The translations under genes were made by a program, and so were the position numbers. The notes beneath the pieces were generated by a model, which was not told where the DNA came from, searched no databases, and saw only the letters and a list, made by a program, of their open reading frames with translations. 64,000 bases of DNA, taken from NCBI RefSeq assembly GCF_056712565.1, contig NZ_CM160072.1; one strand, given 5' to 3'. Of the stretch, positions 4,736 through 21,929 are shown piece after piece (positions within the stretch are counted from its first letter, which is position 1; every line of letters starts with the position of its first letter).

Positions 4736-7146
4736 GCCATGCCGATATGAACAACTGCTGCGGCTTTAACGAGGCTGCCGCAGCGTTCTCATGGAACAGC
4801 CCGAAAAAGGCCATTAACCCTTATCTGGACCCGGCGGAAGTTGCGCCGGTTTCTGCGCTTTCAAACCTGATCACTCTGTACGCTGCCGATAACGAGCAGG
4901 AACAGTTGCGCCGCGAGGCACTGAGTGATCAGGTCTGGGAGCGTTATTTTTTTAATGAATCACGTGATCCTGTCCAGCACGAAATGGAGCAGGATAAGCT
5001 CATTAGCCGGGCAAAGCTGGCGCATGAGCAGCAGCGTTTTAATCCGGATATGGTCATTCTGGCGGACGTCAACGCCCAGCCTTCCCATATCAGCAAGCCG
5101 CTGATGCAACGTATTGAATACTTCAGCAGCCTGGGCAGGCCAAAGGCTTATTCCCGCTATTTACGTGAGACGATTAAGCCATGTCTGGAACGACTGGAGC
5201 ATGTACGCGACAGCCAGCTATCTGCATCTTTTCGTTTTATGGCAAGCCATGTAGGGCTGGACGGCCTGCTGATTCTGCCTGAAATGAGTCAGGATCAGGT
5301 GAAACGCCTGTCTACCCTTGTCGCTGCGCATATGAGCATGTGCCTTGATGCAGCTTGTGGTGATTTGTATGCCACCGATGACGTTAAGCCAGAAGAAATC
5401 CGCAAGACATGGGAAAAGGTGGCAGCGGAAACCCTGCGTCTGGATGTCATCCCGCCTGCGTTTGAGCAACTCCGTCGGAAAAGAAACCGCCGTAAACCCG
5501 TGCCCTATGAACTCATTCCGGGTTCGCTGGCGCGTATGTTGTGCGCCGACTGGTGGTACCGGAAATTATGGAAAATGCGTTGCGAATGGCGGGAAGAGCA
5601 GTTGCGTGCTGTCTGCCTGGTCAGCAAAAAAGCATCTCCCTATGTCAGCTATGAAGCCGTGATGCATAAACGTGAGCAGCGCCGCAAGTCACTGGAGTTT
5701 TTCCGTTCTCATGAACTGGTGAACGAAGAGGGCGACACGCTGGATATGGAAGACGTGGTAAACGCCAGCAGCAGCAACCCGGCGCACCGCCGCAATGAGA
5801 TGATGGCCTGTGTTAAAGGTCTGGAGCTTATCGCGGAAATGCGCGGTGACTGCGCCGTTTTCTACACCATTACCTGTCCGTCACGTTTCCATTCCACGCT
5901 CAATAACGGCAGACCAAACCCAACCTGGACAAATGCGACGGTAAGACAAAGCAGCGATTATCTGGTCGGCATGTTTGCTGCATTTCGTAAGGCGATGCAC
6001 AAAGCCGGGTTGCGCTGGTATGGCGTGCGGGTGGCTGAGCCGCATCATGACGGTACAGTTCACTGGCACCTGTTGTGTTTTATGCGCAAAAAAGACCGCC
6101 GCGCCATTACTGCATTGTTGCGTAAGTTTGCCATCCGTGAAGACCGCGAGGAACTGGGTAATAACACTGGTCCACGCTTTAAATCTGAGCTGATAAACCC
6201 GCGCAAAGGAACGCCGACAAGCTACATCGCGAAATACATCAGTAAGAACATTGACGGGCGTGGTCTGGCTGGCGAGATCAGCAAGGAAACGGGTAAATCC
6301 CTGCGTGATAACGCTGAATACGTTAATGCCTGGGCGTCTCTGCATCGTGTTCAGCAATTCCGCTTCTTTGGTATTCCAGGGCGTCAGGCTTACCGTGAAC
6401 TGCGGTTGTTGGCTGGTCAGGCGGCAAGGCAGCAGGGTGACAAAAAAGCAGGTGCGCCGGTACTGGATAACCCGCGCCTTGATGCCATCCTGGCTGCTGC
6501 TGATGCTGGCTGTTTTGCCACCTACATTATGAGGCAGGGCGGCGTGCTGGTTCCTCGCAAATATCACTTGATCAGAACCGCTTATGAAATCAATGAAGAG
6601 CCGACCGCCTATGGCGATCACGGTATTCGTATTTATGGCATCTGGTCACCCATTGCAGAAGGCAAGATCTGCACTCATGCAGTGAAGTGGAAAATGGTTC
6701 GTAAAGCCGTTGACGTTCAGGAGGCGGCAGCCGACCAGGGCGCTTGCGCCCCTTGGACTCGTGGCAATAACTGTCCCCTTGCTGAAAATTTGAACCAACA
6801 AGGGAAAGACAAATCAGCTGATGGGGATACCAGGACGGACATTACCCGCATGGATGACAAGGAGTTGCACGATTACCTGCACAGTATGAGCAAAAAAGAG
6901 CGCCGGGAACTGGCTGCAAGGTTACGCCTGGTGAAACCGAAACGGCGTAAAGACTACAAACAGCGAATTATAGACCATCAGCGACAGCAGCTCGTCTATG
7001 AACTGAAGTCCAGAGGATTTAATGGCAGCGAGAAAGAGGTCGATTTACTCCTTCGCGGCGGCAGTATTCCGTCAGGAGCAGGCCTGCGTATCTTCTATCG
7101 GAACCAGCGTTTGCAGGAAGATGATAAGTGGCGAAACCTGTATTAA
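4732..7146 (+). CDS. A: Replication initiation endonuclease gpA (rolling-circle, P2 A family)
   Basis: 804-aa ORF downstream of the early operon; HxH (VHWHLL) and tyrosine-rich nicking region; synteny with P2/186 gene A. Confidence 0.85.
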
Positions 7147-8615: not shown

Positions 8616-8659
8616 CGTAGATCATGCTCCTGCATGAAAACCACTACATAAAGCGGGCA

Positions 8660-8678
8660 GGCGTGGCGGGGATACGAG
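8660..8678. other. Putative cos (cohesive-end) site of the prophage
   Basis: GGCGTGGCGGGGATACGAG resembles the 19-nt P2/186 cohesive-end sequences as I recall them (GGCGTGGCGGGGA...); lies upstream of portal Q as expected. Confidence 0.45.
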
Positions 8679-8692
8679 CGCGCGCTTGCACC

Positions 8693-8721
8693 TTGATATT
8701 CACGGTTTGGTTAAGTATTGT
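8693..8721 (+). promoter_or_regulatory. Putative sigma70 promoter of the protease operon
   Basis: TTGATA - 17 bp - TATTGT, about 40 bp upstream of ATG 8762. Confidence 0.35.
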
Positions 8722-8761
8722 CTTAGTCAGAGTCCATAACATATTACAGAATGGAGTTGTT

Positions 8762-9409
8762 ATGATTGGTCCTGAATATGTCGTAGTTGTTGGCGTGCTT
8801 AATGCAGGTTTGGTTAGTTTTTTAGGAACAGGTTTTTTTATTTCTAAGGATAAAATAATTACTTCCCGCCATGTTATTAATGGGTTTTCTTCTAACTTAG
8901 TTATTTCTCCATCTAATATAAATAACTTTAATAGTTATCAGGATACAAGTGTTGATAAATTTCAATGTATTGGAGTTGATGTTATTGATGAAGATCCAAT
9001 AAAAGACTTATGTGTGTTAAAAATTAAAAATGCACCTGTTTATGAACCTTGCCTAAAAATTGCTACTCTTGACGATGTTAATGTCGGTGAAGATGTGGGT
9101 ATTTTAGGTTTCCCACATTGTAATGAAAATAGAAAAGTATTGACATTTCAAACGGCAAAAATAGGTGCAAAAGTTTTACTTTCAAGCAGTAATATTCAAT
9201 CTAAACATGCCGTTATAAATATCCAAACCAGACCTGGTCAATCGGGATCGATTGTATTTAATTTAAAAAATGACTCGGTAATAGGCGTCTTGGTTGGCGC
9301 TTATGCAAATAATTCTGGAGGTTCTGTTTTGGTTGGAGGTATTAATCCAGCTGAACTACATCAGACAACTTATGCGGTTTCTGCAGAATATGTTAAGGAT
9401 ATGTTATGA
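8762..9409 (+). CDS. Trypsin-fold (S1/chymotrypsin-like) serine protease, 215 aa; accessory cargo
   Basis: Catalytic triad contexts in order His (ITSRHVING), Asp (DLCVLKI), Ser (RPGQSGSIVF); GGAG RBS; very AT-rich; track ORF 5' extension to 8624 would cross cos. Confidence 0.8.
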   Translation: MIGPEYVVVVGVLNAGLVSFLGTGFFISKDKIITSRHVINGFSSNLVISPSNINNFNSYQDTSVDKFQCIGVDVIDEDPIKDLCVLKIKNAPVYEPCLKIATLDDVNVGEDVGILGFPHCNENRKVLTFQTAKIGAKVLLSSSNIQSKHAVINIQTRPGQSGSIVFNLKNDSVIGVLVGAYANNSGGSVLVGGINPAELHQTTYAVSAEYVKDML

Positions 9410-9852
9410 TTGCTATACCAAATGAAGATGCTGAGTCTTGGTTGTCCACTTTAAAAACGTATCAATCTTCATCTGTCAGGAATTTTCTCGAAAATGGCGA
9501 TGAAGAAAAGGCTCTTGAGCTATGGCTAACTGCATCTGGCCCAAGTTCAGTTGCTCAATTTGGCGGTGATAATTCAAAAATGCCGGGAAGAAAAGCGTTT
9601 GTTGAGCAGTTTAAATTAGAGTTTAAGGCTTTTGTATGTGGAGGTGATAAATATGCAGAGGAGAGGGAATGTTTAGGAGCACTGACTGGTGATGTTAAAA
9701 CATACTTTGTAGGGGTGATCTCTTCGGCAATTGCGGGTTCTTTGGGGGCAACAGCAACATTTATTGCTCCAGCTGTAGTAATTATGTTGATAGCTGTCTC
9801 AAAAATGGGAATTAATGCTTGGTGTTCATTAGAGACAACGACAGAATCTTAG
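9406..9852 (+). CDS. Small protein (148 aa) with C-terminal hydrophobic membrane anchor; partner of the protease
   Basis: ATGA start/stop overlap with protease gene (translational coupling); C-terminal segment YFVGVISSAIAGSLGATATFIAPAVVIMLIAVS is hydrophobic. Confidence 0.7.
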   Translation: MIAIPNEDAESWLSTLKTYQSSSVRNFLENGDEEKALELWLTASGPSSVAQFGGDNSKMPGRKAFVEQFKLEFKAFVCGGDKYAEERECLGALTGDVKTYFVGVISSAIAGSLGATATFIAPAVVIMLIAVSKMGINAWCSLETTTES

Positions 9853-9854
9853 GA

Positions 9855-9879
9855 AAACGCCCTTTTAGGGCGTTTTTTT
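9855..9879. terminator. Bidirectional rho-independent terminator between cargo operon and portal gene
   Basis: AAACGCCC-TTTTA-GGGCGTTT followed by T-run and preceded by A-run; overlaps Q stop codon. Confidence 0.7.
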
Positions 9880-10906
9880 ATAAATCATAATGCTGAAATC
9901 GGATAGTTTTCTCACCTAACCATTCATTAACTTCCATTATTCTTTTTTGGAGTGGAATTAGTTCATTTCTAACAAAAACCTTACTCGCCTTCTCCACATC
10001 CCCAAACCCTCCAACATTATTAGGCATTATCCCCATCATTTGTGGCGGCACACGATGCGCCGCCATCATGTCGTCCCGGCTCACGTTCTTGATATTCAGG
10101 AACTCATCCTTCGCCGCCACTTCTGACAACGGGATAATCTGAAGCCCGTCCTTTTTACCGTTAGGCGAGTACATAAACAGGTTACGGAAGTTACCAGGAC
10201 CTTTGGCACTTTTCATCGCGTTGCGGAGATTGTTCACATCCTCCTGATTCTGCGCGGCATCGGTCATATACATGATGAAGCCTGCATGGCTGCCGTTGAT
10301 GTAATACTTGCGGCGGAACAGCGTGGCGGACTTATTGAGCAGGGCTGACGGAATGGCAGAAAGATAGCCGGGCAGGCCGTAGATCTCCTGGTTGATGTCC
10401 GGTTCCATCAGATGAAAAATGCTGCCTTTCGTGAACTGATACGGCTGGGTTGTCATACCGTATTGCACAAACCAGTAGGTATCCAGGTCTAACCCGCGTC
10501 GGGTGTATTTTGCCAGCGCAGGATCAAGGGCGATAACTTCACCGAATCGGTTCGTGCGTTTCTCCAGGTAGGCGTTACCAAATACCAGATAGTCCTGCAC
10601 AAAACGCGAAAAAGCCTGCTGGCTGAGCAGCGGATGAGGGATATAGGTACTGGTCAGAATGTTGCACTTTACTGCAATCGGAGAACTGTGATGCACGGCG
10701 GCGCGGAAGGTGCGCGCCAGTCCGTCAAAGCTGACGGGCGGCTCATACCAGCGATCTGTCTGTACGCATTCCACATAGTCCAGCAGTTCACGGCGGTCCA
10801 GAACAGGAACGGGATCACCGAAGCTGAATGCTTCGGCTGAAGTCTGGCTTTTATGCTGGAGCTGGTTCGTCGACGCAGCGCGGTTCTTCTTACTCTTTCC
10901 CATCAA
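9878..10906 (-). CDS. Q: Portal protein gpQ
   Basis: 342-aa ORF; first leftward late gene; size and position as P2 Q. Confidence 0.9.
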   Translation of the reverse strand: MMGKSKKNRAASTNQLQHKSQTSAEAFSFGDPVPVLDRRELLDYVECVQTDRWYEPPVSFDGLARTFRAAVHHSSPIAVKCNILTSTYIPHPLLSQQAFSRFVQDYLVFGNAYLEKRTNRFGEVIALDPALAKYTRRGLDLDTYWFVQYGMTTQPYQFTKGSIFHLMEPDINQEIYGLPGYLSAIPSALLNKSATLFRRKYYINGSHAGFIMYMTDAAQNQEDVNNLRNAMKSAKGPGNFRNLFMYSPNGKKDGLQIIPLSEVAAKDEFLNIKNVSRDDMMAAHRVPPQMMGIMPNNVGGFGDVEKASKVFVRNELIPLQKRIMEVNEWLGEKTIRFQHYDL

Positions 10907-12630
10907 AAAATCTCCACAATATTACTGGTATTGGCGGACTCGCCCTGCAGTGGTTCGTTAAACAGTGCGTGCATTGTTGCCCAGGCCAGATCGGCGTGGC
11001 TGGCTTCTTCGCTGCGGCTGGCTTCATAGGTCGGGCGGTTGCCGCTGGCGGTGGTTGCGCGACGGATTGCCATGAATGACTGCGCAATGTCGGTGTGTCC
11101 GGCGTCAAACTCCAGACGGCGGTGGCTGATAATGTCGTAGGCCTTGAGTACCAGGGCGTTTTTAACGTTGGGGTTGTAGACAAACTCCCGGACGGCAGGA
11201 AAGAACGCTTTCACGTTCTCATAAACCCCGTGACCGACACCTGTCGAGTCGATGCCGATATATGTCACGTTGTACTGTTCGGTCAGTTTTTTGATGGCGT
11301 CCGCCTGGGCGCGGAAGTCCATCCCGCGCCACTGGTGACGCTCAAGAATACGGAACTTACCGCCCGGCACGGCTGGCGGAGCCACCACCACGCATCCGGC
11401 ACTGTCGCCGTTCTGCGTACCTTTTGCCGGGTCATAACCGATCCACACTTCGCGCCAGCCAAACGGGCGCAGCGCCAGTGCATGAAAGTCGGTCCAGACT
11501 TCCCAGCTGTCCACCATGCACGCCTGCAATTCGCTGAGCGGGAACACAGATGCGAGATCGTCAACGAACTCGCACATCAGCAGGTTCTGGTATTCGTCCG
11601 GGCTGTACTCCATGCGCAACTGGTCGAGGTCGAACAGGTTACAGCCGCCGCGTACCGCATCTTCCACGGTGACTATCTGGCGGTATTGCCCGTCTGCGCA
11701 CAGCAGGCCGGGGGCCAGATTGCTGTGGGACAGGTCGATGTCCACCTTATCGGCTTTGTTGCGCCCACGGTTGAACAACGCGCCGGACCAGAACGGATAA
11801 GCACTGTGGGTCAGGCTGGATGGCGTGGAAAAATAGGTCTGTCGCCATTTCTTGTGAATAGCCATACCGGAAGCCACTTTGCGCAGCTCCTGAAATTTTG
11901 GTATCCAGAAATATTCATCCAGATACAGGTTGCCGTGATAACTCTGGGCCGTGCGGGCATTGGTGCCTAGGAAGTAAAGCGTGGCCCCGTTAGGAAGCAC
12001 CATCGGATCGCCTTTCAGCTCCACCTCCACTTCTTTGGCGAAGTCGATGATGTACTGCTTAAAGACGTGGGCCTGTGCCTTACTGGCGGAAAGGAAAATC
12101 TGGTTACGCCCGGTAAGCAGAGCGTCAATCAGGGCTTCACGGGCAAAGTAAAAGGTTGCGCCGATCTGGCGTGACTTCAGCAGGTTGCGGATGCGGTTGT
12201 TTTTTCCGGCTTCCCACCAGTGGCGCTGGTAGTTGAACATGGAGGAATGGAAGATTTCTTCCAGCTTCTCAATCTGTTCATCGGTGAAAACGTTCTTTTC
12301 CGGCTGACGGCGCGGGCCTTTGTTGCGGTTGGCGACGTTAGGGTTTAAGTCGGCTTCGTTGCCGCCATTGTTAAACTTGCCGATCCGCGCATGGCGCTCC
12401 GACTGGCGCGCCAGCAGGTCAATCTCTTTGAAATCTTTCCCTTCTTTGTGCTCCTTCATAATGAGCTGGCAGTAGCGTGCGGCGGTGGTGAGCTGCATCT
12501 GATCCAGCGGCCCATAGTCACCCCACTTGTCGCGTTTTTTCCAGCTGTTCCAGTAAGTTTTTTCTAACGGAGCACGGCTCATGACAGTGAAAGCAAAGCG
12601 TTTTCGCATCGGGGTGGAAGGTGCCACCAC
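10903..12630 (-). CDS. P: Terminase large (ATPase) subunit gpP; true start probably downstream of 12630
   Basis: 575-aa ORF following Q; ATPase motifs; 5' end overlaps the divergent capsid ORF so start is uncertain. Confidence 0.85.
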   Translation of the reverse strand: MVAPSTPMRKRFAFTVMSRAPLEKTYWNSWKKRDKWGDYGPLDQMQLTTAARYCQLIMKEHKEGKDFKEIDLLARQSERHARIGKFNNGGNEADLNPNVANRNKGPRRQPEKNVFTDEQIEKLEEIFHSSMFNYQRHWWEAGKNNRIRNLLKSRQIGATFYFAREALIDALLTGRNQIFLSASKAQAHVFKQYIIDFAKEVEVELKGDPMVLPNGATLYFLGTNARTAQSYHGNLYLDEYFWIPKFQELRKVASGMAIHKKWRQTYFSTPSSLTHSAYPFWSGALFNRGRNKADKVDIDLSHSNLAPGLLCADGQYRQIVTVEDAVRGGCNLFDLDQLRMEYSPDEYQNLLMCEFVDDLASVFPLSELQACMVDSWEVWTDFHALALRPFGWREVWIGYDPAKGTQNGDSAGCVVVAPPAVPGGKFRILERHQWRGMDFRAQADAIKKLTEQYNVTYIGIDSTGVGHGVYENVKAFFPAVREFVYNPNVKNALVLKAYDIISHRRLEFDAGHTDIAQSFMAIRRATTASGNRPTYEASRSEEASHADLAWATMHALFNEPLQGESANTSNIVEIF

Positions 12631-13930
12631 CGACGGACGCGAAATCCAGCGTGAATGGCTGGAACAGATGGCAGCCAGCTACAACCCGGCGGTGTATACC
12701 GCGCTGATTAACCTTGAGCACATCAAGTCTTATATACCGGACAGCACCTTTAACCGCTACGGCAAGGTGACGGCGCTGTTTGCTGAAGAAATCACGGAAG
12801 GTCCGCTGGCAGGCAAGATGGCGCTGTATGCCGACGTTGAGCCAACGGAGTCCCTGGTGGAACTGGTGAAAAAAGGCCAGAAATTATTCACCTCTATGGA
12901 AGTCAGCCCGAAGTTCGCTGATACGGGCAAAGCCTACCTGGTCGGCCTGGCTGCCACTGATGACCCTGCCAGTCTGGGTACGGAAATGCTGACATTCAGC
13001 GCCAGTGCAGCCCATAACCCGCTGGCAAACCGCAAGCAGAATCCTGCCATGACTGAGCAGTCCGGTCAGCTGCTGGGGCTGGGTGTTGGCAGCACCATTG
13101 CCGGAACCACTGACACCACCGCAAAAGAGCGTGAACCTGTCGATCCGACGCTGATGGTCGATGTGGAATATAAATGCGAGCAGACCAACTTTGACACGGT
13201 GCTGACCTACGCGAAGCTGGACCTGTGGGCGAAGTTTCAGGATTTCCAGGTGCGTATCCGTGACGCCATCGTGAAACGTCAGGCACTGGACCGCATCATG
13301 ATCGGCTTTAACGGCGTGAAGCGTGCGAAAACCTCCAACCGTAGTGAAAACCCGCTGCTGCAGGATGTGAACAAAGGCTGGCTGCAGAAAATCCGTGAGG
13401 ATGCACCGGATCACGTCATGGGCAGCACCACCACGGGCGGCGAAACCACACCGGGTGCGGTGAAAGTCGGTAAAGGGGGCGAATATGCCAACTTGGACGC
13501 TGTGGTGATGGATGCGGTCAATGAGCTTATCGACGTGGTCTACCAGGACGATGACGATCTGGTGGTGATTTGCGGTCGTGAACTGCTGTCTGACAAGTAT
13601 TTCCCGCTGGTCAACAAAGAGCAGGAAAACAGTGAAAAATTGGCAGCCGATATGATTATCAGTCAGAAACGCATGGGCGGTCTGCAGGCCGTGCGTGCGC
13701 CGTTCTTCCCGCCGAATGCGCTGCTGATCACCCGTCTGGATAACCTGTCCATCTACTGGCAGGAAGACACCCGCCGCCGTTCAGTTATCGACAACCCGAA
13801 ACGTGACCGGATTGAAAACTTTGAATCCGTTAACGAAGCCTATGTGGTTGAGGACTACCGCTGCGCCGCACTGGTGGAAAACATCCAGATTGGTGATTTC
13901 AGCGCCGCCGCAGCCGAAACCGGAGCGTAA
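12581..13930 (+). CDS. Capsid protein with N-terminal gpO-like scaffold/protease region and C-terminal gpN-like major-capsid region in one 449-aa ORF
   Basis: N-terminus FRIGVEGATTDGR resembles P2 gpO start as I recall it; C-terminal half LITRLDNLSIYWQE...DNPKRDRIENFES...VVEDY resembles P2 gpN; single uninterrupted frame. Confidence 0.75.
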   Translation: MTVKAKRFRIGVEGATTDGREIQREWLEQMAASYNPAVYTALINLEHIKSYIPDSTFNRYGKVTALFAEEITEGPLAGKMALYADVEPTESLVELVKKGQKLFTSMEVSPKFADTGKAYLVGLAATDDPASLGTEMLTFSASAAHNPLANRKQNPAMTEQSGQLLGLGVGSTIAGTTDTTAKEREPVDPTLMVDVEYKCEQTNFDTVLTYAKLDLWAKFQDFQVRIRDAIVKRQALDRIMIGFNGVKRAKTSNRSENPLLQDVNKGWLQKIREDAPDHVMGSTTTGGETTPGAVKVGKGGEYANLDAVVMDAVNELIDVVYQDDDDLVVICGRELLSDKYFPLVNKEQENSEKLAADMIISQKRMGGLQAVRAPFFPPNALLITRLDNLSIYWQEDTRRRSVIDNPKRDRIENFESVNEAYVVEDYRCAALVENIQIGDFSAAAAETGA

Positions 13931-13933
13931 TCC

Positions 13934-14584
13934 ATGAACCTGAGTCCCGCACGGCAGCATCGCCTGCGCGTTCAGGCTGAACAGGCCGCCCGCGAGGGCG
14001 GCAGTGTTCGCCACGCATCGGGCCATGACCTGATGCTGCTGCAACTGGCGGAAGACCGCCGCCGTCTCAAGGGCGTTCAGTCCACGGTCAAAAAAGCGGA
14101 AATCAAGGTGGAGCTGCTGCCGAAGTACGCCGCCTGGGCAGAGGGTGTCCTGGCTGCCGGAGGCGCTCAACAGGATGACGTGCTGATGTACGTGATGCTG
14201 TGGCGCATTGATGCCGGAGATTATGCCGGAGCGCTGGAGATCGGGCGTCATGCCCTGCGTCATGGCTGGGTGATGCCGCTGGGTAACCGCAACGTGCAGA
14301 CCGTGCTGGCAGAGGAAATGGCAGACGCCGCGCAGAGCGCAATGCTTGCCGCCACCGGCTTTGATGCCGATCTGTTGTTGCAGACGCTGGAGCTGACAGA
14401 CGGTCTGGATATGCCGGACCAGTCACGGGCGCGTCTGCATAAAGCGATTGGCGCTGTCCTGAGTGAAAGCAATCCGGCTTCCGCCCTTAATCATCTCAAC
14501 CATGCGTTACAGCTCGATCCCCGCTGTGGCGTGAAAAAAGACAAACAGCAGCTGGAGCGCAGACTGCGCAATGACAGCCGCTGA
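13934..14584 (+). CDS. M: Terminase small/endonuclease subunit gpM
   Basis: 216-aa ORF after capsid gene; P2 synteny. Confidence 0.8.
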   Translation: MNLSPARQHRLRVQAEQAAREGGSVRHASGHDLMLLQLAEDRRRLKGVQSTVKKAEIKVELLPKYAAWAEGVLAAGGAQQDDVLMYVMLWRIDAGDYAGALEIGRHALRHGWVMPLGNRNVQTVLAEEMADAAQSAMLAATGFDADLLLQTLELTDGLDMPDQSRARLHKAIGAVLSESNPASALNHLNHALQLDPRCGVKKDKQQLERRLRNDSR

Positions 14585-14679
14585 CAGAACGTGCCCCCGC
14601 GCACGGGCGGCACGGGGTGGCGAAAGGCACCGCCACATCAAAACCCCGTCCACCGCCCTCTATTTCAGGAGAAAGCAGC

Positions 14680-15144
14680 ATGAAGTTTGTTGCGCCAGAA
14701 CAGGCACCGGAACAGGCGGAAATCATCAGGAATACGCCGTTCTGGCCTGATGTGGACTTGTCGGAGTTTCGCAGTGTCATGCGCACTGACGGCACGGTGA
14801 CGCAGCCGCGTTTAAAGCAGGTTGCGCTGTCGGCAATTTCGGAGGTCAACGCAGAGCTGTATGAGTTTCGCAGACGCCAGCAGATGCTGGGATATGCCTC
14901 GCTGGCAGAGGTTCCGGCAGAACATCTGGACGGGAAAAGTGAGCGCATTCAGCACTATTTCAACGCGGTTTACTGCTGGGCCCGCGCCATGCTCAACGAA
15001 CGATACCAGGACTATGACGCCACGGCGTCTGGTGTGAAGCGAGGCGAGGAACTGGCGGAAGCCAGCGGTGATTTATGGCGTGACGCCCGCTGGGCCATCA
15101 GCCGGGTACAGGACGCGCCGCACTGCACAGTGGAGCTTATCTGA
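14680..15144 (+). CDS. L: Head completion protein gpL
   Basis: ATG 14680 with AGGAGA RBS; P2 synteny. Confidence 0.75.
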   Translation: MKFVAPEQAPEQAEIIRNTPFWPDVDLSEFRSVMRTDGTVTQPRLKQVALSAISEVNAELYEFRRRQQMLGYASLAEVPAEHLDGKSERIQHYFNAVYCWARAMLNERYQDYDATASGVKRGEELAEASGDLWRDARWAISRVQDAPHCTVELI

Positions 15145-15347
15145 TGAAAGTGCGTGCGCATCAGTATGACACGGTGGACGCGCTTTGCTGGCGTCATTAC
15201 GGGCGCACGCAGGGTGTCACGGAGCAGGTACTGAAGGCAAATCCGGGGCTTGCCGAATACGGCCCCTTTTTACCTCACGGGCTGCAGGTGGAGCTGCCGG
15301 ACATTCCGACTACCACCACCGTGCAGACCGTCCAGCTATGGGACTGA
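15144..15347 (+). CDS. X: Tail protein gpX (67 aa)
   Basis: Size and position as P2 X; TGATG overlap with L. Confidence 0.8.
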   Translation: MKVRAHQYDTVDALCWRHYGRTQGVTEQVLKANPGLAEYGPFLPHGLQVELPDIPTTTTVQTVQLWD

Positions 15348-15350
15348 ATT

Positions 15351-15566
15351 ATGACGCTTGAGCGAATCAGCGCCTTTATCACGTACTGCATCGCCGTTGT
15401 GCTGGCCTGGCTGGGCGATTTGTCCATCAAGGATGCCTCAACGCTGGGCGGCCTGATGATTGGTGTGCTGATGCTGGCTATCAACTGGTACTACAAACAC
15501 AAAGCCTACCAGCTTCTGCGCGACGGGCAGATCTCGCGGGAGGACTATGAATCCATCAATCGTTAA
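15351..15566 (+). CDS. Holin (71 aa, two TM segments; pinholin-like)
   Basis: Two hydrophobic stretches then charged C-terminus; directly upstream of lysozyme. Confidence 0.7.
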   Translation: MTLERISAFITYCIAVVLAWLGDLSIKDASTLGGLMIGVLMLAINWYYKHKAYQLLRDGQISREDYESINR

Positions 15567-16059
15567 ACGCTGCCTTGTCGGGGCCGTGCTGGCTATTGCT
15601 GCCACGCTGCCGGGTTTTCAGCAGCTTCACACCTCCGTAGAGGGGCTGAAACTGATTGCCGATTACGAAGGCTGTCGTCTGCAGCCGTATCAGTGCAGCG
15701 CGGGCGTCTGGACCGACGGCATTGGTAATACGTCGGGCGTCATTCCCGGCAAAACCATTACGGAGCGACAGGCAGCAAAAGGGCTGATCTCCAACGTGCT
15801 GCGTGTGGAGCGGGCGCTGGAAAGGTGTGTGAAGCAACAGCCGCCGCAGAAGGTATATGACGCTACGGTGTCGTTTGCCTTCAACGTGGGAACGGACAAT
15901 GCCTGCAGTTCAACACTGGTGAAATTACTCAATCAGCGGCGCTGGGCGGATGCGTGCCGACAGTTGCCGCGCTGGGTTTATGTGAAAGGTGTGTTTAATC
16001 AGGGGCTGGATAACCGCCGTGCGCGGGAGATGGCCTGGTGTTTACAGGGAGCAAACTGA
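15547..16059 (+). CDS. K: Endolysin (phage lysozyme) with N-terminal SAR-like hydrophobic segment
   Basis: N-terminus KRCLVGAVLAIAATLPG (Gly/Ala-rich hydrophobic) followed by lysozyme-like region EGLKLIADYEGCRLQPYQCSAGVWTDGIGNT. Confidence 0.8.
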   Translation: MNPSIVKRCLVGAVLAIAATLPGFQQLHTSVEGLKLIADYEGCRLQPYQCSAGVWTDGIGNTSGVIPGKTITERQAAKGLISNVLRVERALERCVKQQPPQKVYDATVSFAFNVGTDNACSSTLVKLLNQRRWADACRQLPRWVYVKGVFNQGLDNRRAREMAWCLQGAN

Positions 16060-16060
16060 A

Positions 16061-16438
16061 ATGAAAAAGAAATTAATCAGCGGGCTGTTTCTGATGTTAT
16101 GGATGGCGTTGTTAATCGCAGCAATGGTGTATCCGCAGGGGATTTTTCCGGTACTGGCAGCGTCCGGCGTTTGGGTAGCCTGTTTGCTGACATGGGCGGT
16201 AATTCCGGTAGCACTGGCTGCGTTAATTAAGAATGGACCGCTCTGGCAGGAGTTAAGGGCATCTTTGCTGAAGACAATTACCCGAAAAGAAAACGTATTT
16301 ACCAGTTGGGTGATGCGATTGCTGATTGTTGTAAGTCTCGCCTGGACGGGGTGGGCTATTACCCTGGTGTTTTATCTACTGACCGTTATTGCCTTCTGGA
16401 TCACCCGTAATCAGATGGCGCAACAGGTAGCAGCATGA
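16061..16438 (+). CDS. lysA: LysA-like membrane protein
   Basis: ATG 16061; multiple TM helices; P2 position. Confidence 0.6.
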   Translation: MKKKLISGLFLMLWMALLIAAMVYPQGIFPVLAASGVWVACLLTWAVIPVALAALIKNGPLWQELRASLLKTITRKENVFTSWVMRLLIVVSLAWTGWAITLVFYLLTVIAFWITRNQMAQQVAA

Positions 16439-16863
16439 ACCGGTTGCTGCTGGTTGTGCTGGCGTTATTACTGGCGGCGCTGGGCTGGCAGACGTGGCGG
16501 CTGGCTGATGCCAGCCAGACCATTAGCACGCAGGCAGACGAGCTGCAGAGCAAAAGCCAGGCACTGGCAAAGAGCAACAGCCAGCTTATCAGCCTGTCCA
16601 TTCTGGCTGAAACCAACAACCGGGAGCAGGCGCGGCTCTATGCCGACGCAGAACAGACCAGCGCACTGCTGAGACAACGACAACACCGGATTGAGGAACT
16701 GAAACGTGAGAACGAGGATTTACGCCGCTGGGCTGATACTCCTTTGCCTGCTGACATTATCCGGCTGCGGGAACGCCCCACGCTCACCGGAGGTGCAGCT
16801 TACCGTCAGTGGTTGTCCGCGAGTGACGCCGTGTCGGCTGGATCAGGCAGCGCCGCGCATTAA
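16435..16863 (+). CDS. lysB: LysB (Rz-like spanin, inner-membrane component)
   Basis: N-terminal TM, coiled-coil-like middle; embedded out-of-frame lipoprotein ORF. Confidence 0.65.
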   Translation: MNRLLLVVLALLLAALGWQTWRLADASQTISTQADELQSKSQALAKSNSQLISLSILAETNNREQARLYADAEQTSALLRQRQHRIEELKRENEDLRRWADTPLPADIIRLRERPTLTGGAAYRQWLSASDAVSAGSGSAAH

Positions 16864-16996
16864 CGGTGATCTGAACGCGTTGTTGGATGAAACGGAGGCC
16901 GCCTGGGCGGTCTGTGCAGACAAAGTGGACATGATTATTGCGTGTCAGGAGCGAAACAGTGAACAAACCACAATCCCTGCGCCACGCCCTCAATAA
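16706..16996 (+). CDS. lysC: LysC (Rz1-like outer-membrane lipoprotein spanin)
   Basis: Lipobox LSGC after signal peptide; overlaps lysB in another frame. Confidence 0.5.
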   Translation: MRTRIYAAGLILLCLLTLSGCGNAPRSPEVQLTVSGCPRVTPCRLDQAAPRINGDLNALLDETEAAWAVCADKVDMIIACQERNSEQTTIPAPRPQ

Positions 16997-17390
16997 GGCG
17001 GTGCCTTATGTCCGCAATAACCCGGACAAACTGCATCTGTTTGTGGATAACGGTTCGCTGGTTGCCACGGGGGCCAGCTCCATGTCATGGGAGTACCGCT
17101 ACACCCTGAACGTGGTGATTGAGGATTTCAGCGGCGACCAGAATCTGCTGATGGCCCCGGTTTTGCTGTGGCTGCGGGATAACCAGCCCGATGCCATCAA
17201 TAATCCGGCGTTACGGGAAAAGTTATTCACCTTTGAGGTGGATATTCTGCGCAACGATGTCTGTGATATCAGCCTTAACCTGCAACTGACGGAGCGTGTG
17301 CTGGTCAGCACTGACGGCAGTGTGTCGAGCGTTGAAGCTATAGCGGAACCTGATGAACCTGAAGAAATGTGGACGGTGAAACGTGGCTGA
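16938..17390 (+). CDS. R: Tail completion protein gpR (start uncertain, TTG 16938 or GTG 16959)
   Basis: KPQSLRHALNKAV resembles P2 gpR N-terminus; synteny. Confidence 0.7.
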   Translation: MRVRSETVNKPQSLRHALNKAVPYVRNNPDKLHLFVDNGSLVATGASSMSWEYRYTLNVVIEDFSGDQNLLMAPVLLWLRDNQPDAINNPALREKLFTFEVDILRNDVCDISLNLQLTERVLVSTDGSVSSVEAIAEPDEPEEMWTVKRG

Positions 17391-17820
17391 ACTGCAGAAG
17401 GTGGATGAGTGGCTGGCGGCCTTGCTGGCGAATCTGGAGCCTGCCACACGCCAGCGTATGATGCGGGAACTGGCGCAGGAGTTGCGCCGCAATCAGCAGA
17501 AGAATATCAGGCTGCAGCTTAACCCTGATGGCAGCGGCTTTGAGCCGCGCCGGGTAGCAGCCCGCAGTAAGAAGGGGCGCATCAAACGCCAGATGTTCGC
17601 CAAATTGCGCACTAATAAATACCTGAAAACTGCCGCCACAGCGGATTATGCCTGCGTGTATTTTGATGGAAAAGTCCAGCGCATCGCCTGTGTACACCAC
17701 TATGGACTGCGTGACCGTGTTAGTCGAAGAGGTTTAAAAGTACAGTACCCTGAGAGAAGGCTTTTAGGATTTACTAAGGATATTAGTAACTTGAACTTGG
17801 GTGTTTACTTAAAACGCTAA
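17383..17820 (+). CDS. S: Tail completion protein gpS; last ~20 codons run into AT-rich cargo DNA
   Basis: Synteny after R; 3' end from about 17760 is AT-rich and continuous with the cargo island. Confidence 0.75.
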   Translation: MAELQKVDEWLAALLANLEPATRQRMMRELAQELRRNQQKNIRLQLNPDGSGFEPRRVAARSKKGRIKRQMFAKLRTNKYLKTAATADYACVYFDGKVQRIACVHHYGLRDRVSRRGLKVQYPERRLLGFTKDISNLNLGVYLKR

Positions 17821-17909
17821 AGTAAATAGTGGGTTAAGAGAATTAGTGGAGGGAGACTTTATCGTTCTACATAAGATACCTTGCTTGAATATACTATAAA
17901 GCTCTTTTT

Positions 17910-17938
17910 TTGAGATTAATCTTGTTGTACTTTAATGT
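17910..17938 (+). promoter_or_regulatory. Putative sigma70 promoter for the OLD-like gene
   Basis: TTGAGA - 17 bp - TAATGT upstream of ATG 17966. Confidence 0.3.
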
Positions 17939-17965
17939 CTTCACCTCACTAATGGAGCTAATTTT

Positions 17966-19924
17966 ATGATAGTAGGGATTTTTTTAAGGTATTTTAAAAC
18001 ATACAACGGAAATCATTACATACCGTTATCTTCTGGAAGTCAGTTTTGTGGAATTGTTGGTAACAATGGAATTGGCAAAAGTTCTGTTCTTGAGGCTTTA
18101 GATTCGTTTATTAATAACAAACCATGGAATATTAATTCTTCATTTAAAAGAACCTCCAGTGACAGACCTTCTCCACATATTGTTCCTTTATATCTTATAA
18201 AGCGAGAGGAATTACATGAAGATCATCATGCTAAAGCTGAAATCTTAACGCAATTAGTATTAGAATATAGCAATAGTAATGCTGATGTTACATTGACGCC
18301 AACAACACGAAATATAATTAATACGTTTTTTGAACATATTAACAAATTAAAAAGAAATTTAAATCTCCAAGATTATTTTTTGATCCCTCTGGGTGTCGAG
18401 AAAGATGGTGATGTAAGTATTTCGATTCTTAATGGGAAGAGTTTATGTCGACTTTTGGAGGTTGATAATCCCGATAATAAAGTTTCGAGCGAGTTGCTTA
18501 GTAAGCACTTTGGGTATTTATTACATCATGTCCGCCATAAGTATGAATATATATATATTCCAAAGGATATAGACTCTGAATCGTTTACGAAGCTAGAAAC
18601 AAGTGAAGTACAAAAGTTGATGGGTGAGTCTTTAGAGCAGATAATTAAAGATAGAATATCTGATAGAACCATAAGTCAAATCAATACAGGGCTTGCCAAA
18701 TTTCTGGATGGTGTTGAAGAGGAGCTTGAAGAATATGGTTATAGAACATCTGGCGAGAGACAATCGCGATTAAAAAAGAAAGATGTTTATAATTTGATTA
18801 TCGAAGCATTCTTCAAAGTTAGGAAATTAAATAAAAAGCAGAATTCAGGTTGGATTGAAATTAGCTCGCTAAGTTCAGGGGAGAAGCAACGTGCAATAAT
18901 GGATATTGCATATGGGTTTCTTACCAATCATAGAGAAAATGGCGATAATCTGATTATTGGAATTGATGAGCCAGAATGTTCTCTTCATATGTCTGCATGT
19001 TTTGAACAATTTGAAAAGCTCTATTCTATTAGTGGTATATGTGAACAATTAATATTTACTTCACATTGGTATGGCTATCTTCCAACCGTCGAAAATGGAT
19101 GTACCACAACTATCCTTAAAACAGATTCAACTCATCATTTTGAATTATATGATCTTGCCAGTTATAGAGAAGAAGTCAGGAAGAAAGTAAAAACCTCTTC
19201 CCCGGGTATGCCATTTGATATAAAAATAAAAAGTGTAAATGACCTTATACAATCCATAATATCTAGCTGTTTGGCTGAGAAACCTTACAATTGGTTGATT
19301 TGTGAGGGTACTACAGAAAAAATATATCTTTCGCATTATCTAAAGGACTTGGTAGAAAATAAAAGGCTAAGGATTGTGCCTGTAGGGGGAGCTAGTGAAG
19401 TTAAAAAAATATTTAAGCATTTAGAAGCTTCTTATGAAGAGTTCAAAAAAGACCTCAAAGGAAAAGTGTTCTTACTAACCGATACAGATTCAGAGTTGGT
19501 GTCATATGATACCCCAGTTATGCCGCATGTTGTTTGTAAGCGAATTGTTAGTGTAGGTGATTCAGTGAAGTTGGTTGATATTTCTTCCAATCCAGTTTCT
19601 CCTGCAACAGAAATAGAGGATTGTCTTAATCCTGTATCGTTTATAGAGGCTTTAACATCATTTTCTTCACGTTTTCCTGAGCTTCAGGCATTGCTGCCTA
19701 ATAGTAATGTTATGATAGATGAAAGACATTCATCGTTTGCTGCGATGGATTTGTCACCCAAGAACAAAAAAACGCTTGATGCTTTTTTTGACCGTGAAGG
19801 AATTAAGTTTGATTTTTCAAAGGAATATATTTCAATCTGTGAGCGAAATGAGCGGAAAAGGCCAGAGTGGATTGCCAAAATTGAAAATTTTTTTATAAGT
19901 GATAAACCTGTAAAGTTTAATTGA
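17966..19924 (+). CDS. OLD-family ATP-dependent nuclease (ABC ATPase + TOPRIM), 652 aa; accessory defence-type cargo
   Basis: Walker A GNNGIGKSS, ABC signature LSSGEKQ, Walker B LIIGIDEPE, H-loop FTSHW; C-terminal TOPRIM-like WLICEGTTE and LLTDTDSE; same motif layout as host YbjD in this window; AT-rich. Confidence 0.85.
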   Translation: MIVGIFLRYFKTYNGNHYIPLSSGSQFCGIVGNNGIGKSSVLEALDSFINNKPWNINSSFKRTSSDRPSPHIVPLYLIKREELHEDHHAKAEILTQLVLEYSNSNADVTLTPTTRNIINTFFEHINKLKRNLNLQDYFLIPLGVEKDGDVSISILNGKSLCRLLEVDNPDNKVSSELLSKHFGYLLHHVRHKYEYIYIPKDIDSESFTKLETSEVQKLMGESLEQIIKDRISDRTISQINTGLAKFLDGVEEELEEYGYRTSGERQSRLKKKDVYNLIIEAFFKVRKLNKKQNSGWIEISSLSSGEKQRAIMDIAYGFLTNHRENGDNLIIGIDEPECSLHMSACFEQFEKLYSISGICEQLIFTSHWYGYLPTVENGCTTTILKTDSTHHFELYDLASYREEVRKKVKTSSPGMPFDIKIKSVNDLIQSIISSCLAEKPYNWLICEGTTEKIYLSHYLKDLVENKRLRIVPVGGASEVKKIFKHLEASYEEFKKDLKGKVFLLTDTDSELVSYDTPVMPHVVCKRIVSVGDSVKLVDISSNPVSPATEIEDCLNPVSFIEALTSFSSRFPELQALLPNSNVMIDERHSSFAAMDLSPKNKKTLDAFFDREGIKFDFSKEYISICERNERKRPEWIAKIENFFISDKPVKFN

Positions 19925-19931
19925 TAAATGG

Positions 19932-19951
19932 TCGCAGGGGAAACCCTGCGA
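19932..19951 (+). terminator. Terminator-like hairpin after OLD-like gene
   Basis: TCGCAGGG-GAAA-CCCTGCGA (GNRA-type loop) 8 bp after the stop; weak T-tract. Confidence 0.45.
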
Positions 19952-19958
19952 TATTCTA

Positions 19959-20006
19959 CTAACCTCTAACCTCTAACCTCTAACCTCTAACCTCTAACCT
20001 CTAACC
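19959..20006. repeat. Heptanucleotide tandem repeat (CTAACCT) x ~6.9
   Basis: Six perfect CTAACCT units plus CTAACC read directly from the sequence; intergenic between cargo gene and V promoter. Confidence 0.95.
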
Positions 20007-20034
20007 AGAGGGTTTATTTCTTTTCAAAGAAAAT

Positions 20035-20052
20035 TGTATCTTCTTTTATACA
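20035..20052 (+). promoter_or_regulatory. Putative Ogr-dependent late promoter element upstream of V
   Basis: TGT-N12-ACA dyad (TGTatcttcttttatACA), the conserved activator site of P2 late promoters; P2 has a late promoter before V. Confidence 0.5.
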
Positions 20053-20099
20053 AAATAAGCTGTTTGAAGAGGTTGTGTAAAGCATGGAAAAATAATCTT

Positions 20100-20678
20100 A
20101 TGAATACACAACTCACAGAAATCATGCGCCTTATCACCAACCTGATCCGCACAGGGGTAGTCACTGAAGTGGACAAGGAAAACTGGCTTTGTCGGGTGAA
20201 AACGGGCGACCTTGAAACCAACTGGATTAACTGGCTGACGCTGCGCGCGGGTAATGCCCGCACATGGTGGCGACCATCGGAAGGTGAGCAGGTGGTGCTG
20301 CTGAGTCTGGGAGGAAATCTGGAAACCGCCTTTGCGCTGCCCGCTGTCTATTCGAATCAGTTCGCACCACCGTCGACGTCGGCGGAAGCCTGCGTGACAG
20401 AACATCCTGACGGTGGCTGGTTTGAATACGAACCAGCCACCGGGCGCTGGTATGTCAGGGGCATCAAATCCATGGTCATTGAGGCTGCTGACAACATCAC
20501 CCTGAAAACCAGAGAGTTTGTGCTGGAGGCTGACCGCACGCGTATTAACAGCGAAGTAGTGATCAATGGTGGTGTTACCCAGGGCGGCGGTGCAATGAGT
20601 TCTAACGGAATTGTGGTTGATGCACATCAGCATACTGGCGTCCTGAAAGGCGGCGACACAACCGGAGGCCCGGTATGA
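20100..20678 (+). CDS. V: Baseplate spike protein gpV
   Basis: N-terminus and WWRPSEGEQV region resemble P2 gpV; synteny. Confidence 0.85.
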   Translation: MNTQLTEIMRLITNLIRTGVVTEVDKENWLCRVKTGDLETNWINWLTLRAGNARTWWRPSEGEQVVLLSLGGNLETAFALPAVYSNQFAPPSTSAEACVTEHPDGGWFEYEPATGRWYVRGIKSMVIEAADNITLKTREFVLEADRTRINSEVVINGGVTQGGGAMSSNGIVVDAHQHTGVLKGGDTTGGPV

Positions 20679-21034
20679 CGCTTTATAGCGGGATGAACAA
20701 TACCAGCGGCAAAGCTATTACTGATATTGACCATCTGCGCCAGTCGGTGCGGGACATTCTGCTGACACCGCAGGGTAGCCGCATTGCCCGCCGGGAATAT
20801 GGTTCCCTGCTGTCGGCACTGATAGACCAGCCACAAAATCCGGCGTTACGCCTGCAGGTCATGTCGGCAGTGTATGTGGCGCTGAGTCGCTGGGAGCCAC
20901 GGCTGACGCTGGATTCCATCACCATCAACAGCAACTTTGACGGTTCTATGGTGGTGGAGCTGACCGGGCGGCGGAATAACGGTGTACCTGTGTCCCTTTC
21001 CGTATCGACAGGAGCAGAGAATGGCAGTGATTGA
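20675..21034 (+). CDS. W: Baseplate protein gpW
   Basis: 119 aa; synteny V-W-J-I. Confidence 0.8.
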   Translation: MTLYSGMNNTSGKAITDIDHLRQSVRDILLTPQGSRIARREYGSLLSALIDQPQNPALRLQVMSAVYVALSRWEPRLTLDSITINSNFDGSMVVELTGRRNNGVPVSLSVSTGAENGSD

Positions 21035-21929
21035 CCTTTCGCAGTTGCCTGCGCCGCAGATTGTGGATGTGCCGGACTTTGAGACGCTGCTTACCGAACG
21101 CAAGGCAGAATTTGTGGCGCTTCATCCGAAAGATGAGCAGGAAGCAGTGATCCGCACGCTGGAACTGGAATCTGAACCCGTCACCAAATTGTTGCAGGAG
21201 AATACTTACCGTGAGTTGCTTCTGCGCCAACGCATTAACGAAGCCGCGCAGGCGGTGATGGTGGCTTACGCGATGGGCGGCGATCTTGACCAGCTCGCTG
21301 CCAACTACAACGTGAAACGCCTGACGGTGACACCTGCTGATAATGACGCTGTGCCGCCCGTTGCAGCAGTGATGGAAAGCGATGAAGCGTTACGCCTGCG
21401 TGTGCCTGCAGCCTTTGAGGGGCTTTCAGTTGCGGGACCAACTGCAGCTTATGAATTTCATGCCCGAAGCGCCGACGGTCGGGTGGCGGATGCCAGTGCA
21501 ACCAGTCCGGCTCCTGCAGAGGTGGTGCTTACTGTCCTGAGCCGTGAAGGCGACGGAACAGCAGAAAAAGACTTGCTGGATGTGGTGGAGAAAGCCCTGA
21601 ACAGTGAGAACGTCCGCCCGGTGGCTGACCGTCTGACGGTTCGCAGCGCAGAAATCATCCCGTACCGTGTGGAAGCCACCATTTTTCTCTATCCGGGACC
21701 GGAAGCGGAGCCGGTAATGGCAGCGGCAAAAGCCAGCCTGCAGAAGTACATCGCCAGTCAGACGCGGCTTGGTCGGGATATTCGCCGTAGTGCCATTTTT
21801 GCCGCGCTGCATGTTGAGGGGGTTCAACGTGTGGAGCTGGCTTCACCGCTGGCTGATGTGGTCCTGAACAAAACACAGGCCGCATCATGTACGCAGTGGA
21901 GCGTAACCAACGGAGGAACGGATGAATAG
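21021..21929 (+). CDS. J: Baseplate protein gpJ
   Basis: ATG 21021 after GGAG; synteny. Confidence 0.85.
   Translation: MAVIDLSQLPAPQIVDVPDFETLLTERKAEFVALHPKDEQEAVIRTLELESEPVTKLLQENTYRELLLRQRINEAAQAVMVAYAMGGDLDQLAANYNVKRLTVTPADNDAVPPVAAVMESDEALRLRVPAAFEGLSVAGPTAAYEFHARSADGRVADASATSPAPAEVVLTVLSREGDGTAEKDLLDVVEKALNSENVRPVADRLTVRSAEIIPYRVEATIFLYPGPEAEPVMAAAKASLQKYIASQTRLGRDIRRSAIFAALHVEGVQRVELASPLADVVLNKTQAASCTQWSVTNGGTDE

Follow-up and report, generated by a model that had tools for sequence, protein, structure and literature searches.

A gpO–gpN chimeric reading frame in a P2-like prophage, very probably the scar of a recent deletion

The O::N open reading frame and its domains

The window, by which we mean the whole stretch of 64,000 nucleotides analysed (contig NZ_CM160072.1 of RefSeq assembly GCF_056712565.1), contains a P2-like prophage integrated next to ybjL. 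In the head-gene region of this prophage, positions 12581 to 13930 (+) hold one ATG-initiated open reading frame (ORF) of 449 aa, flanked by the terminase gene P on the minus strand and by gene M on the plus strand, as a preliminary description of the locus had stated. The ORF is a chimera composed of O residues 1–156, a junction residue (Met157) and N residues 61–352. Its gpO-derived part (12581–13048, +; codons 1–156) comprises the whole protease domain and 16 residues of the middle region, and its gpN-derived part (13052–13930, +) consists of codons 61–352 plus the stop codon, corresponding approximately to residues 61–357 of P2 gpN. The junction codon (13049–13051, +) is an ATG, with the A derived from O codon 157 (AAT) and the TG from N codon 60 (GTG).

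Pfam analysis assigned residues 6–156 of the fusion to positions 2–152 of the 268-position Phage_GPO profile (PF05929; E = 2.4e-79) and residues 157–435 to positions 53–327 of the 327-position Phage_cap_P2 profile (PF05125; E = 6.7e-129). PHROGs agreed with Pfam, giving a head scaffolding/maturation protease followed by a major head protein, and chain residues 57–352 of the solved P2 gpN structure 7jw1 aligned from fusion residue 154 onward (E = 2.7e-113). BLASTP against phage P2, the alignment proposed in the preliminary description, mapped the junction: fusion residues 5–155 matched gpO 6–157 (53% identity) and residues 157–449 matched gpN 60–357 (59% identity). These results confirm the earlier view that the first ~150 residues are gpO-like and the remainder gpN-like, and the ORF is not a full-length capsid protein devoid of a gpO region, given that residues 1–156 are gpO-derived. 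The sizes given there for P2 gpO and gpN, together about 640 aa from separate genes, also proved correct (284 and 357 aa).

P2 gpO is composed of a protease domain (residues 1–141, with catalytic S107) and a scaffolding domain (residues 195–284) that is essential for P2 procapsid assembly, while the N-terminal region of P2 gpN includes helix alpha0 (residues 1–14), the gpO cleavage site 31|32 and the N-arm (PMC7552001). The fusion retains the N-terminal serine-protease domain typical of the GPO family (P2 1–141), with S105 aligned to S107, as well as the capsid body of PF05125 from residue ~60 to the C-terminus, including the E-loop, P-domain and A-domain. The C-terminal scaffolding domain is absent from it, Phage_GPO positions 153–268 being unmatched and O residues 157–277 deleted, and so is the N-terminal region of gpN with helix alpha0, the 31|32 site and the N-arm, N residues 1–60 being gone and PF05125 positions 1–52 unmatched. 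In the same alignment, D18/H47 correspond to D19/H48 of P2 gpO and F139|S140 to F141|C142, reported as catalytic residues of P2 gpO and as its exact self-cleavage site (141|142) by Chang et al. 2009. An AlphaFold2 model of the fusion built on a 20-sequence alignment had a mean pLDDT of 37 and was discarded as unusable.

Two deletions relative to the prophage of E. coli SF-468

The chromosome of E. coli SF-468 (NZ_CP012625.1) carries an intact prophage at ~3,273,350–3,307,743 with the same integration site, cargo genes and gene order as the window. This prophage is Wadgaonvirus-type, and its O–N region is 97.9% identical to that of Escherichia phage 500465-1. In the SF-468 annotation, GPO (277 aa) and the capsid protein (352 aa) are separate, the terminase is 588 aa and the P–O intergenic region is 142 nt. 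Over 64 kb, the window and the SF-468 chromosome are 100% identical save for gaps of 231 and 559 bp, one SNP and one invertible tail-fibre segment, which lies in opposite orientation in the two. Outside these differences every gene is unaltered, including the cargo with its defence-type genes PDC-M35 and an OLD-like ATPase.

Aligned with O plus N of SF-468, the fused ORF shows 0 mismatches and a single gap of 559 bp. Its junction at 13049|13050 is a clean deletion running in frame from O codon 157 to N codon 60 and is blunt, the two sides having no bases in common. The repeats nearest to the breakpoints were copies of GTTTTTTC offset by 7–8 nt and a GCCA offset by 1 nt; deletion through this GCCA microhomology would have removed 558 bp and destroyed the frame. 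Since the breakpoints themselves carry no repeats, a repeat-mediated deletion or assembly collapse was rejected. A 1-bp indel within 13046–23586 indicated by BLAST proved to be an alignment artefact of the GCCA near-repeat at the junction. A sequencing frameshift hiding a normal pair of genes, which the preliminary description had raised, can be rejected, since 559 bp are physically absent by comparison with a 100%-identical relative.

Another deletion, not mentioned in the preliminary description, lies at 12548|12549, 500 bp upstream of the 559-bp junction. There, 231 bp have been lost (positions 5738–5968 of SF-468 locus L001), and this junction is also blunt. Terminase gene P thereby loses 121 nt at its 5′ end (its first 40 codons), and the P–O intergenic region loses 110 of its 142 nt, including the TGT-N12-ACA site TGTGTGGTTGTCGGTACA. 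What remains of P (10903–12548, −) is codons 41–588 of 588, without start codon, ribosome-binding site or promoter, and the Terminase_5 profile was matched only at positions 32–58 of 58. A 575-aa GTG-started ORF at 10903–12630 is a spurious extension running over the 12548|12549 junction. The portal gene Q (9878–10906, −) is intact in sequence, but its promoter is the lost one of the P operon, in which Q follows P according to the P2 record and PMC3931495. The deletion event is very recent, as the window and SF-468 differ by one SNP in 64 kb and the fused gene carries zero substitutions.

Both junctions are private to the window sequence. When 5,426 complete E. coli genomes were searched with a 120-bp junction probe, no single-piece match was obtained, only two-piece matches, and the same held for the 12548|12549 junction. 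The exact fusion protein was absent from an index of 153 billion genes, and the exact junction 36-mer had 0 matches in GTDB representative genomes, a weak test with one genome per species. The undeleted arrangement, two genes spanning 1,909 bp and matched in two pieces, was found in the best matches listed of 1,084 E. coli genomes and of 56 phage records. The preliminary description had left open a fusion lineage or an in-frame deletion: the deletion is borne out by the 559-bp gap with 0 mismatches against SF-468, and the lineage is contradicted by the two genes in the listed matches, the related prophages examined not sharing the fused gene.

Among 7,667 homologues, PF05929 and PF05125 were combined in only four other proteins, each a singleton on one contig. 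Three are from E. coli, namely P0001 (497 aa; O kept to ~193, N from ~46), P0002 (412 aa; O to ~132, N from ~73) and P0003 (419 aa; O to ~267, N from ~200), and one is from Salmonella, P0008 (432 aa; O to ~256, N from ~172). The three that were mapped arose from deletions of 415, 670 and 649 bp with 9, 4 and 9 nt of microhomology at the junctions, whereas the junction in the window is blunt. Two of the prophages with such fusions carry further deletions. Singletons in which N is fused to an unrelated neighbour are found about as often as O::N fusions and, since the protein search behind the count detects in-frame fusions only, in-frame O::N fusions cannot be shown to be favoured.

Late promoters and expected expression

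The consensus of P2 late promoters is TGT-N12-ACA (PMC3931495), and we defined an Ogr-dependent late promoter by such a site ~55 nt upstream of the transcription start. In the P2 record, a single activator site (3057–3087) between P and O is common to pO and pP, and the O operon comprises O N M L X Y K lysA lysB R S. Intergenic nucleotide alignment of P2 and SF-468 was too diverged for transcription starts to be transferred base by base, and only the overall layout was used. The corresponding TGT-N12-ACA site of SF-468 (L001 5905–5922) is inside the stretch deleted from the window. No such site is present in window positions 10,000–19,000, including upstream of O, and those kept in the window are located only before V (20035–20052, +; candidate pV) and before FI (26047–26064, +; candidate pF), the candidate pF site, TGTGTGAATAACGGTACA, being closely similar to the deleted P/O site. 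No sigma-70-like promoter was found in 12200–13200. Of the O leader, 32 nt are kept (12549–12580, +) with a Shine-Dalgarno-like GGAG, upstream of which antisense P coding sequence now stands in place of the −10, the −35 and the activator site. Between the cargo operon and Q, a hairpin followed by a U-run (9850–9886; −17.3 kcal/mol, z = −6.1), missed by a simple terminator scan, is equivalent to the tQ terminator; read-through from the upstream cargo operon into the fusion is unlikely given this strong terminator.

These features suggest that no late promoter drives transcription of the fusion. Because pP and pO are deleted, the PQ and O-N-M-L-X-Y-K-lys-R-S operons are expected to be silent, and so probably is the rest of the O operon (13934–17820, +; M, L, X, holin, lysozyme, lysA, lysB/lysC, R and S), although it is 100% identical to that of SF-468. 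Internal or cryptic promoters may still serve these operons. A fusion product is possible, because an intact start codon, the Shine-Dalgarno sequence and the catalytic Ser-equivalent are kept.

Origin of the fusion and comparison with known systems

Taking these results together, we regard the 449-aa ORF as very probably a deletion scar, left in a P2-like prophage that was inactivated recently and has suffered two nearby deletions in the control region of its head genes. By comparison with the intact relative, essential morphogenesis genes have been lost or truncated (O, N and P damaged, the pP/pO region deleted), which is one mark of a defective (cryptic) prophage; the earlier suspicion of a defective prophage is thus upheld and is reinforced by the 231-bp deletion, which truncates P and removes the divergent late-promoter region. 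The 559-bp deletion, in frame by chance, leaves the gpO protease domain attached to a capsid protein without its first 60 residues, and the 231-bp deletion removes the 5′ end of terminase P together with the divergent pP/pO region and its Ogr-type activator site. Lacking the scaffolding domain (P2 gpO 195–284) and the capsid N-arm, the fusion, if made, would be unable to build procapsids and might at most cleave itself at the retained F139|S140; it is best read as non-functional. Failure of head formation, DNA packaging, tail completion and cell lysis would follow from silence of the PQ and O operons, and the prophage would still keep its immunity, replication, tail and cargo genes.

The same lesions might have been selected rather than being neutral: loss of pP/pO would have disarmed lysis and packaging and left the host a harmless prophage with immunity and defence cargo. 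The 231-bp deletion hits precisely the control region of the operon with the holin and endolysin, and PDC-M35, the OLD-like ATPase and the other genes have been spared. Nevertheless, random decay fits the same data, and a single isolate without spread gives no signal of selection; we consider such domestication unlikely. A sequence or assembly artefact, or a non-biological edit of a genome whose O, N, P and promoter region are in reality intact, is less probable again, although this explanation keeps some weight because both junctions are perfectly blunt, unlike those of the three natural O::N fusions examined. The closeness of the two gaps (500 bp) within a sequence that otherwise matches SF-468, and the absence of the junctions and the protein from the collections searched, also point that way. 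On the other hand, there are no flanking repeats on which an assembler could collapse, a distinct isolate would be expected to show an SNP of its own and the invertible segment in the other orientation, as the window does, multi-deletion decay of the same prophage type is seen in real assemblies, and blunt illegitimate deletions do happen in E. coli.

Two further explanations would give the chimera a function. Expressed from a cryptic promoter, it could act as a dominant-negative capsid subunit that lacks the N-arm and spoils the capsids of superinfecting P2-like phages by assembling into them, or as a tethered protease that blocks their assembly, and in that case the independent recurrence of in-frame O::N fusions in E. 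coli and Salmonella would reflect selection for decoys, not chance decay. The in-frame ORF with its native translation start and catalytic Ser equivalent, the other defence-type cargo on the prophage and the independent recurrence of in-frame O::N fusions accord with this idea. We regard it as very improbable, given that no promoter or activator site lies upstream and the terminator blocks read-through, that the allele is confined to this sequence and shows no sign of having spread or been selected, and that recurrence seen by an in-frame-only search, with N chimeras involving unrelated neighbours about as frequent, cannot show favouring. A natural scaffold-capsid fusion lineage, that is, a P2-like group with protease and capsid as one functional polyprotein, is effectively refuted. 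The open frame, the native start and Shine-Dalgarno sequence, the retained protease domain and putative self-cleavage site, and the four other proteins with both domains might seem to favour it. Yet the fusion does not diverge at all from a relative with two genes, and two genes are present in every related phage and prophage examined. The other fusions occur once each and have breakpoints that differ, and the promoter is deleted. The junction did not occur in related but diverged genomes (5,426 E. coli genomes, the top phage matches and the gene index), and scaffolding function has not been kept, the essential scaffolding domain and the capsid N-arm being exactly the missing parts.

The deletion scar is not a new kind of capsid gene but belongs to an ordinary, freshly broken prophage. 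It has little meaning beyond annotation, in which 'deletion-derived pseudogene' or 'chimera' would be the right label for the ORF and 'defective' the right score for the prophage. Even so, it offers a clean, datable case of early prophage decay, in which two small deletions would disable heads, packaging and probably lysis while the remaining sequence is 100% intact. Sporadic fusions of this kind, of which five independent ones are now found in the phage group, would be taken for 'novel architectures' by automatic scans of domain architecture.

The other O::N fusions resemble that of the window in being singletons of the same phage group in which an in-frame deletion joins PF05929 to PF05125, and differ from it in their breakpoints. 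Phage P2 (NC_001895) shares the gene neighbourhood Q P | O N M L X Y K with the window, but its gpO (284 aa) and gpN (357 aa) are encoded by two genes where the window has one ORF. The middle region and scaffolding domain (195–284) of P2 gpO and residues 1–60 of gpN with the 31|32 site are missing from the window's fusion, and the shared pO/pP activator site of P2 (3057–3087) has no counterpart remaining. In HK97, the delta domain of gp5 is a scaffold within the capsid polypeptide and is removed by a separate protease. As in the window, one polypeptide carries a sequence related to assembly ahead of an HK97-fold capsid body; but in HK97 the fused part is the scaffold, whereas in the window, with neither conservation nor a lineage behind it, it is the protease that has been fused and the scaffold that has been deleted.

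Origin of the 449-aa ORF

The preliminary description had noted a single ORF joining a gpO-like N-terminus to a gpN-like capsid C-terminus between terminase P and gene M. Its coordinates proved exact: the ORF (12581-13930, plus strand, 1,350 bp, ATG start) lies between the terminase large-subunit gene on the minus strand and the small-terminase gene M on the plus strand. Both parts of the assignment were borne out, with Pfam Phage_GPO (PF05929) positions 2-152 of 268 matching residues 6-156 (E = 2.4e-79), Phage_cap_P2 (PF05125) positions 53-327 of 327 matching residues 157-435 (E = 6.7e-129), and PHROGs splitting the protein into the same two parts. The alignment to P2 proposed for mapping the junction revealed 53% identity between P2 gpO 6-157 and fusion residues 5-155 and 59% between P2 gpN 60-357 and residues 157-449; with the solved structure of the P2 capsid protein (7jw1), the alignment does not start before residue 57. 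The separate P2 proteins, put at about 640 aa together in the preliminary description, are 284 aa (gpO) and 357 aa (gpN). A full-length capsid protein with no gpO region was ruled out, residues 6-156 being Phage_GPO.

A megablast search with the ORF gave matches in 1,084 E. coli genomes and 56 phage records; all top matches listed were in two pieces, spanning 1,909 bp versus 1,350 bp in the window. The closest relative was E. coli SF-468 (NZ_CP012625.1), whose annotation has separate genes for a GPO-family protein (277 aa) and a capsid protein (352 aa), with 16 nt between them. Base by base, the ORF matches this O-N block without a mismatch over its initial 469 nt and its final 881 nt, which are separated by a single gap of 559 bp (junction 13049|13050). 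The resulting protein consists of O(1-156), one Met and N(61-352); the Met codon is new, its A coming from O codon 157 and its TG from N codon 60. As the N reading frame is +1 relative to O, only deletions of 1 mod 3 stay open, and 559 qualifies. A frameshift artefact was ruled out as the source of the one-ORF layout because the DNA is missing.

Over the 64 kb, the window differs from SF-468 by one true SNP, one invertible tail-fibre segment in the opposite state and two deletions, and the two are practically the same chromosome. The SNP, at 50373 in amiD (T in the window, C in SF-468), is the sole true substitution, indicating that the source of the window is very closely related to the SF-468 clone. 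The inverted segment (23572-25367), carrying the tail-fibre C-terminus and assembly gene, is bounded by inverted repeats with TTGGTTTAGGAGAAG in common and adjoins a Resolvase/HTH_7 serine invertase gene (25426-25998, plus strand); it looks like a Gin/Cin-type host-range switch in the other orientation. The window opens inside the prophage integrase gene, and the prophage extends to about 33300, ending after ogr (about 33069-33287) next to ybjL (33523-35208); what follows is ordinary chromosomal sequence (ybjL, grxA, pot, art, poxB, to ybjD and ybjX).

The immunity, integration and replication genes, the tail operons, ogr and the cargo genes are 100% intact. A two-gene cargo module (8624-9852, plus strand), encoding a trypsin-like S1 peptidase and a 148-aa partner, matches A and B of the candidate anti-phage system PDC-M35 (E = 8e-94 and 4e-58) and sits between the replication genes and the portal gene, the site of old/tin in P2. 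Between tail-completion gene S and baseplate gene V lies the gene for a 652-aa AAA_15 ATPase with an OLD-like TOPRIM domain (17966-19924, plus strand), whose best PADLOC matches are AriA and Old and which is probably a single-gene OLD-family defence cargo.

A second deletion in the late control region

The second gap relative to SF-468, of 231 bp, lies outside the region first described and was missed there. This private deletion (junction 12548|12549 in the 64-kb comparison) cost terminase gene P its initial 121 nt and cut the P-O intergenic region from 142 nt to 32 nt, a loss of 110 nt; the 32 nt left upstream of the fusion ATG include a GGAG Shine-Dalgarno. A 575-aa 'terminase' ORF (10903-12630) overlapping the fusion start is a spurious extension across the junction, and its match to the N-terminal domain Terminase_5 covers no more than profile positions 32-58.

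P2-type late promoters have the consensus TGT-N12-ACA, with pP serving PQ and pO serving ONMLKRS (PMC3931495). The P2 GenBank record places one activator-binding site for pO and pP together, and both transcription starts, in the P-O intergenic region, and gives the O operon as O, N, M, L, X, Y, K, lysA, lysB, R and S. In SF-468 such a site, TGTGTGGTTGTCGGTACA, occurs at 5905-5922 of the prophage locus (L001), within the deleted stretch, its centre 55 nt from the right breakpoint. The only sites of this kind kept in the window precede the V operon (20035) and the FI operon (26047, TGTGTGAATAACGGTACA); none is left from the portal gene to the OLD-like gene, and no sigma-70-like promoter was found near the fusion. 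A strong hairpin at 9850-9886 (-17.3 kcal/mol, z = -6.1), missed by a simple terminator scan, has A- and U-runs on either side and parts the fusion from the upstream plus-strand PDC-M35 cargo operon. Located between this operon and portal gene Q, the hairpin probably corresponds to P2 tQ and terminates transcription in both directions.

Both deletions are read directly from the comparison with SF-468, and from them we infer transcriptional and phenotypic consequences. Most likely, this prophage has recently been inactivated, two small deletions having destroyed genes O, N and P together with the control region that pP and pO share. Ogr-dependent transcription of P-Q and of the O operon would be absent, and no heads, packaging, tail completion (R, S), or holin or endolysin expression would be expected.

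Sporadic occurrence of O::N fusions

The proposed check for the same fused gene in related prophages was negative: in 5,426 complete RefSeq E. coli genomes, 120-bp probes over each junction gave two-piece matches only, and breakpoints differ among all O::N fusions. The exact 449-aa protein had no record in a 153-billion-gene index, and the junction 36-mer was absent from GTDB representatives (a weak test). Among 7,667 relatives found by homology search, in which intact gpN clusters have thousands of members (e.g., 6,413 and 2,789), PF05929 and PF05125 are combined in only four proteins besides the window fusion, P0001 (497 aa), P0002 (412 aa), P0003 (419 aa) and, from Salmonella, P0008 (432 aa), each a singleton on one contig. 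Three of these four were also examined as DNA: the deletions measure 415, 670 and 649 bp, and their junctions show microhomology of 9, 4 and 9 nt; one lies in an otherwise intact head region and two in prophages with further deletions. Other assemblies hold singleton chimeras of gpN with gpU, tape-measure protein and a PF18946 protein (P0005, P0006 and P0111), and several internal deletions occur in the prophages of loci L007 and L008. The differing breakpoints, singleton status, further deletions and other gpN chimeras demonstrate that O::N fusions are sporadic, independent decay products, seen as proteins only if in frame. Hence, of the two origins first offered, the in-frame deletion in a defective prophage stands, given the 559-bp gap, and the fusion lineage, with no shared junction in the collections searched, does not. 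In this phage group, fusion ORFs made by deletion arise repeatedly and can pass for novel domain architectures.

It is improbable, although a modest chance exists, that the two gaps are not biological. Both junctions are blunt, unlike the three natural examples: at the 559-bp junction a GCCA microhomology lies one base off and would give a 558-bp, out-of-frame deletion, while the nearest repeats at the 231-bp junction are 4-8 nt off, and no genome with these deletions was found in any collection searched. However, no repeats would account for assembly collapse, and the independent SNP and inversion state fit a distinct isolate.

Predicted product and relation to known systems

The protease domain is retained whole. 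Fusion S105 aligns to P2 S107, the residue changed in the protease-dead mutant O(S107A). Likewise, H47 and D18 align to P2 H48 and D19, reportedly protease residues, and F139|S140 aligns to P2 141|142, reportedly the gpO self-cleavage site. In P2, gpO 1-141 is the protease that cuts gpN and itself, 142-194 may recruit the portal, and 195-284 is the internal scaffold, 'absolutely required' for procapsid assembly; maturation strips the first 31 residues off gpN, whose N-arm (alpha0 at 1-14, plus alpha1) holds on to the adjacent subunit (PMC7552001). On the gpO side the fusion has lost the scaffold and the segment that may recruit the portal; on the gpN side it has lost the cleavage site and all of the sequence ahead of residue 60. 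Were it translated, it might cleave itself to give an O*-like piece and a capsid body devoid of the N-arm, and its domain map suggests that it would be unable to direct normal procapsid assembly. A predicted structure was of too low confidence (pLDDT 37) to bear on this. One non-ordinary reading is left, in which the chimera is expressed and acts as a dominant-negative decoy; it is very improbable.

The ORF is thus neither a full gpO, the scaffold domain being absent, nor a full gpN, the N-terminal region being absent, nor a member of a fusion lineage, no shared junction having been found; at the sequence level, the prophage is defective. Prophage decay via small deletions is well known. Among known systems, the ORF comes closest to the separate gpO and gpN of P2, to the intact Wadgaonvirus-type prophage of SF-468 and to the remaining sporadic O::N fusions.
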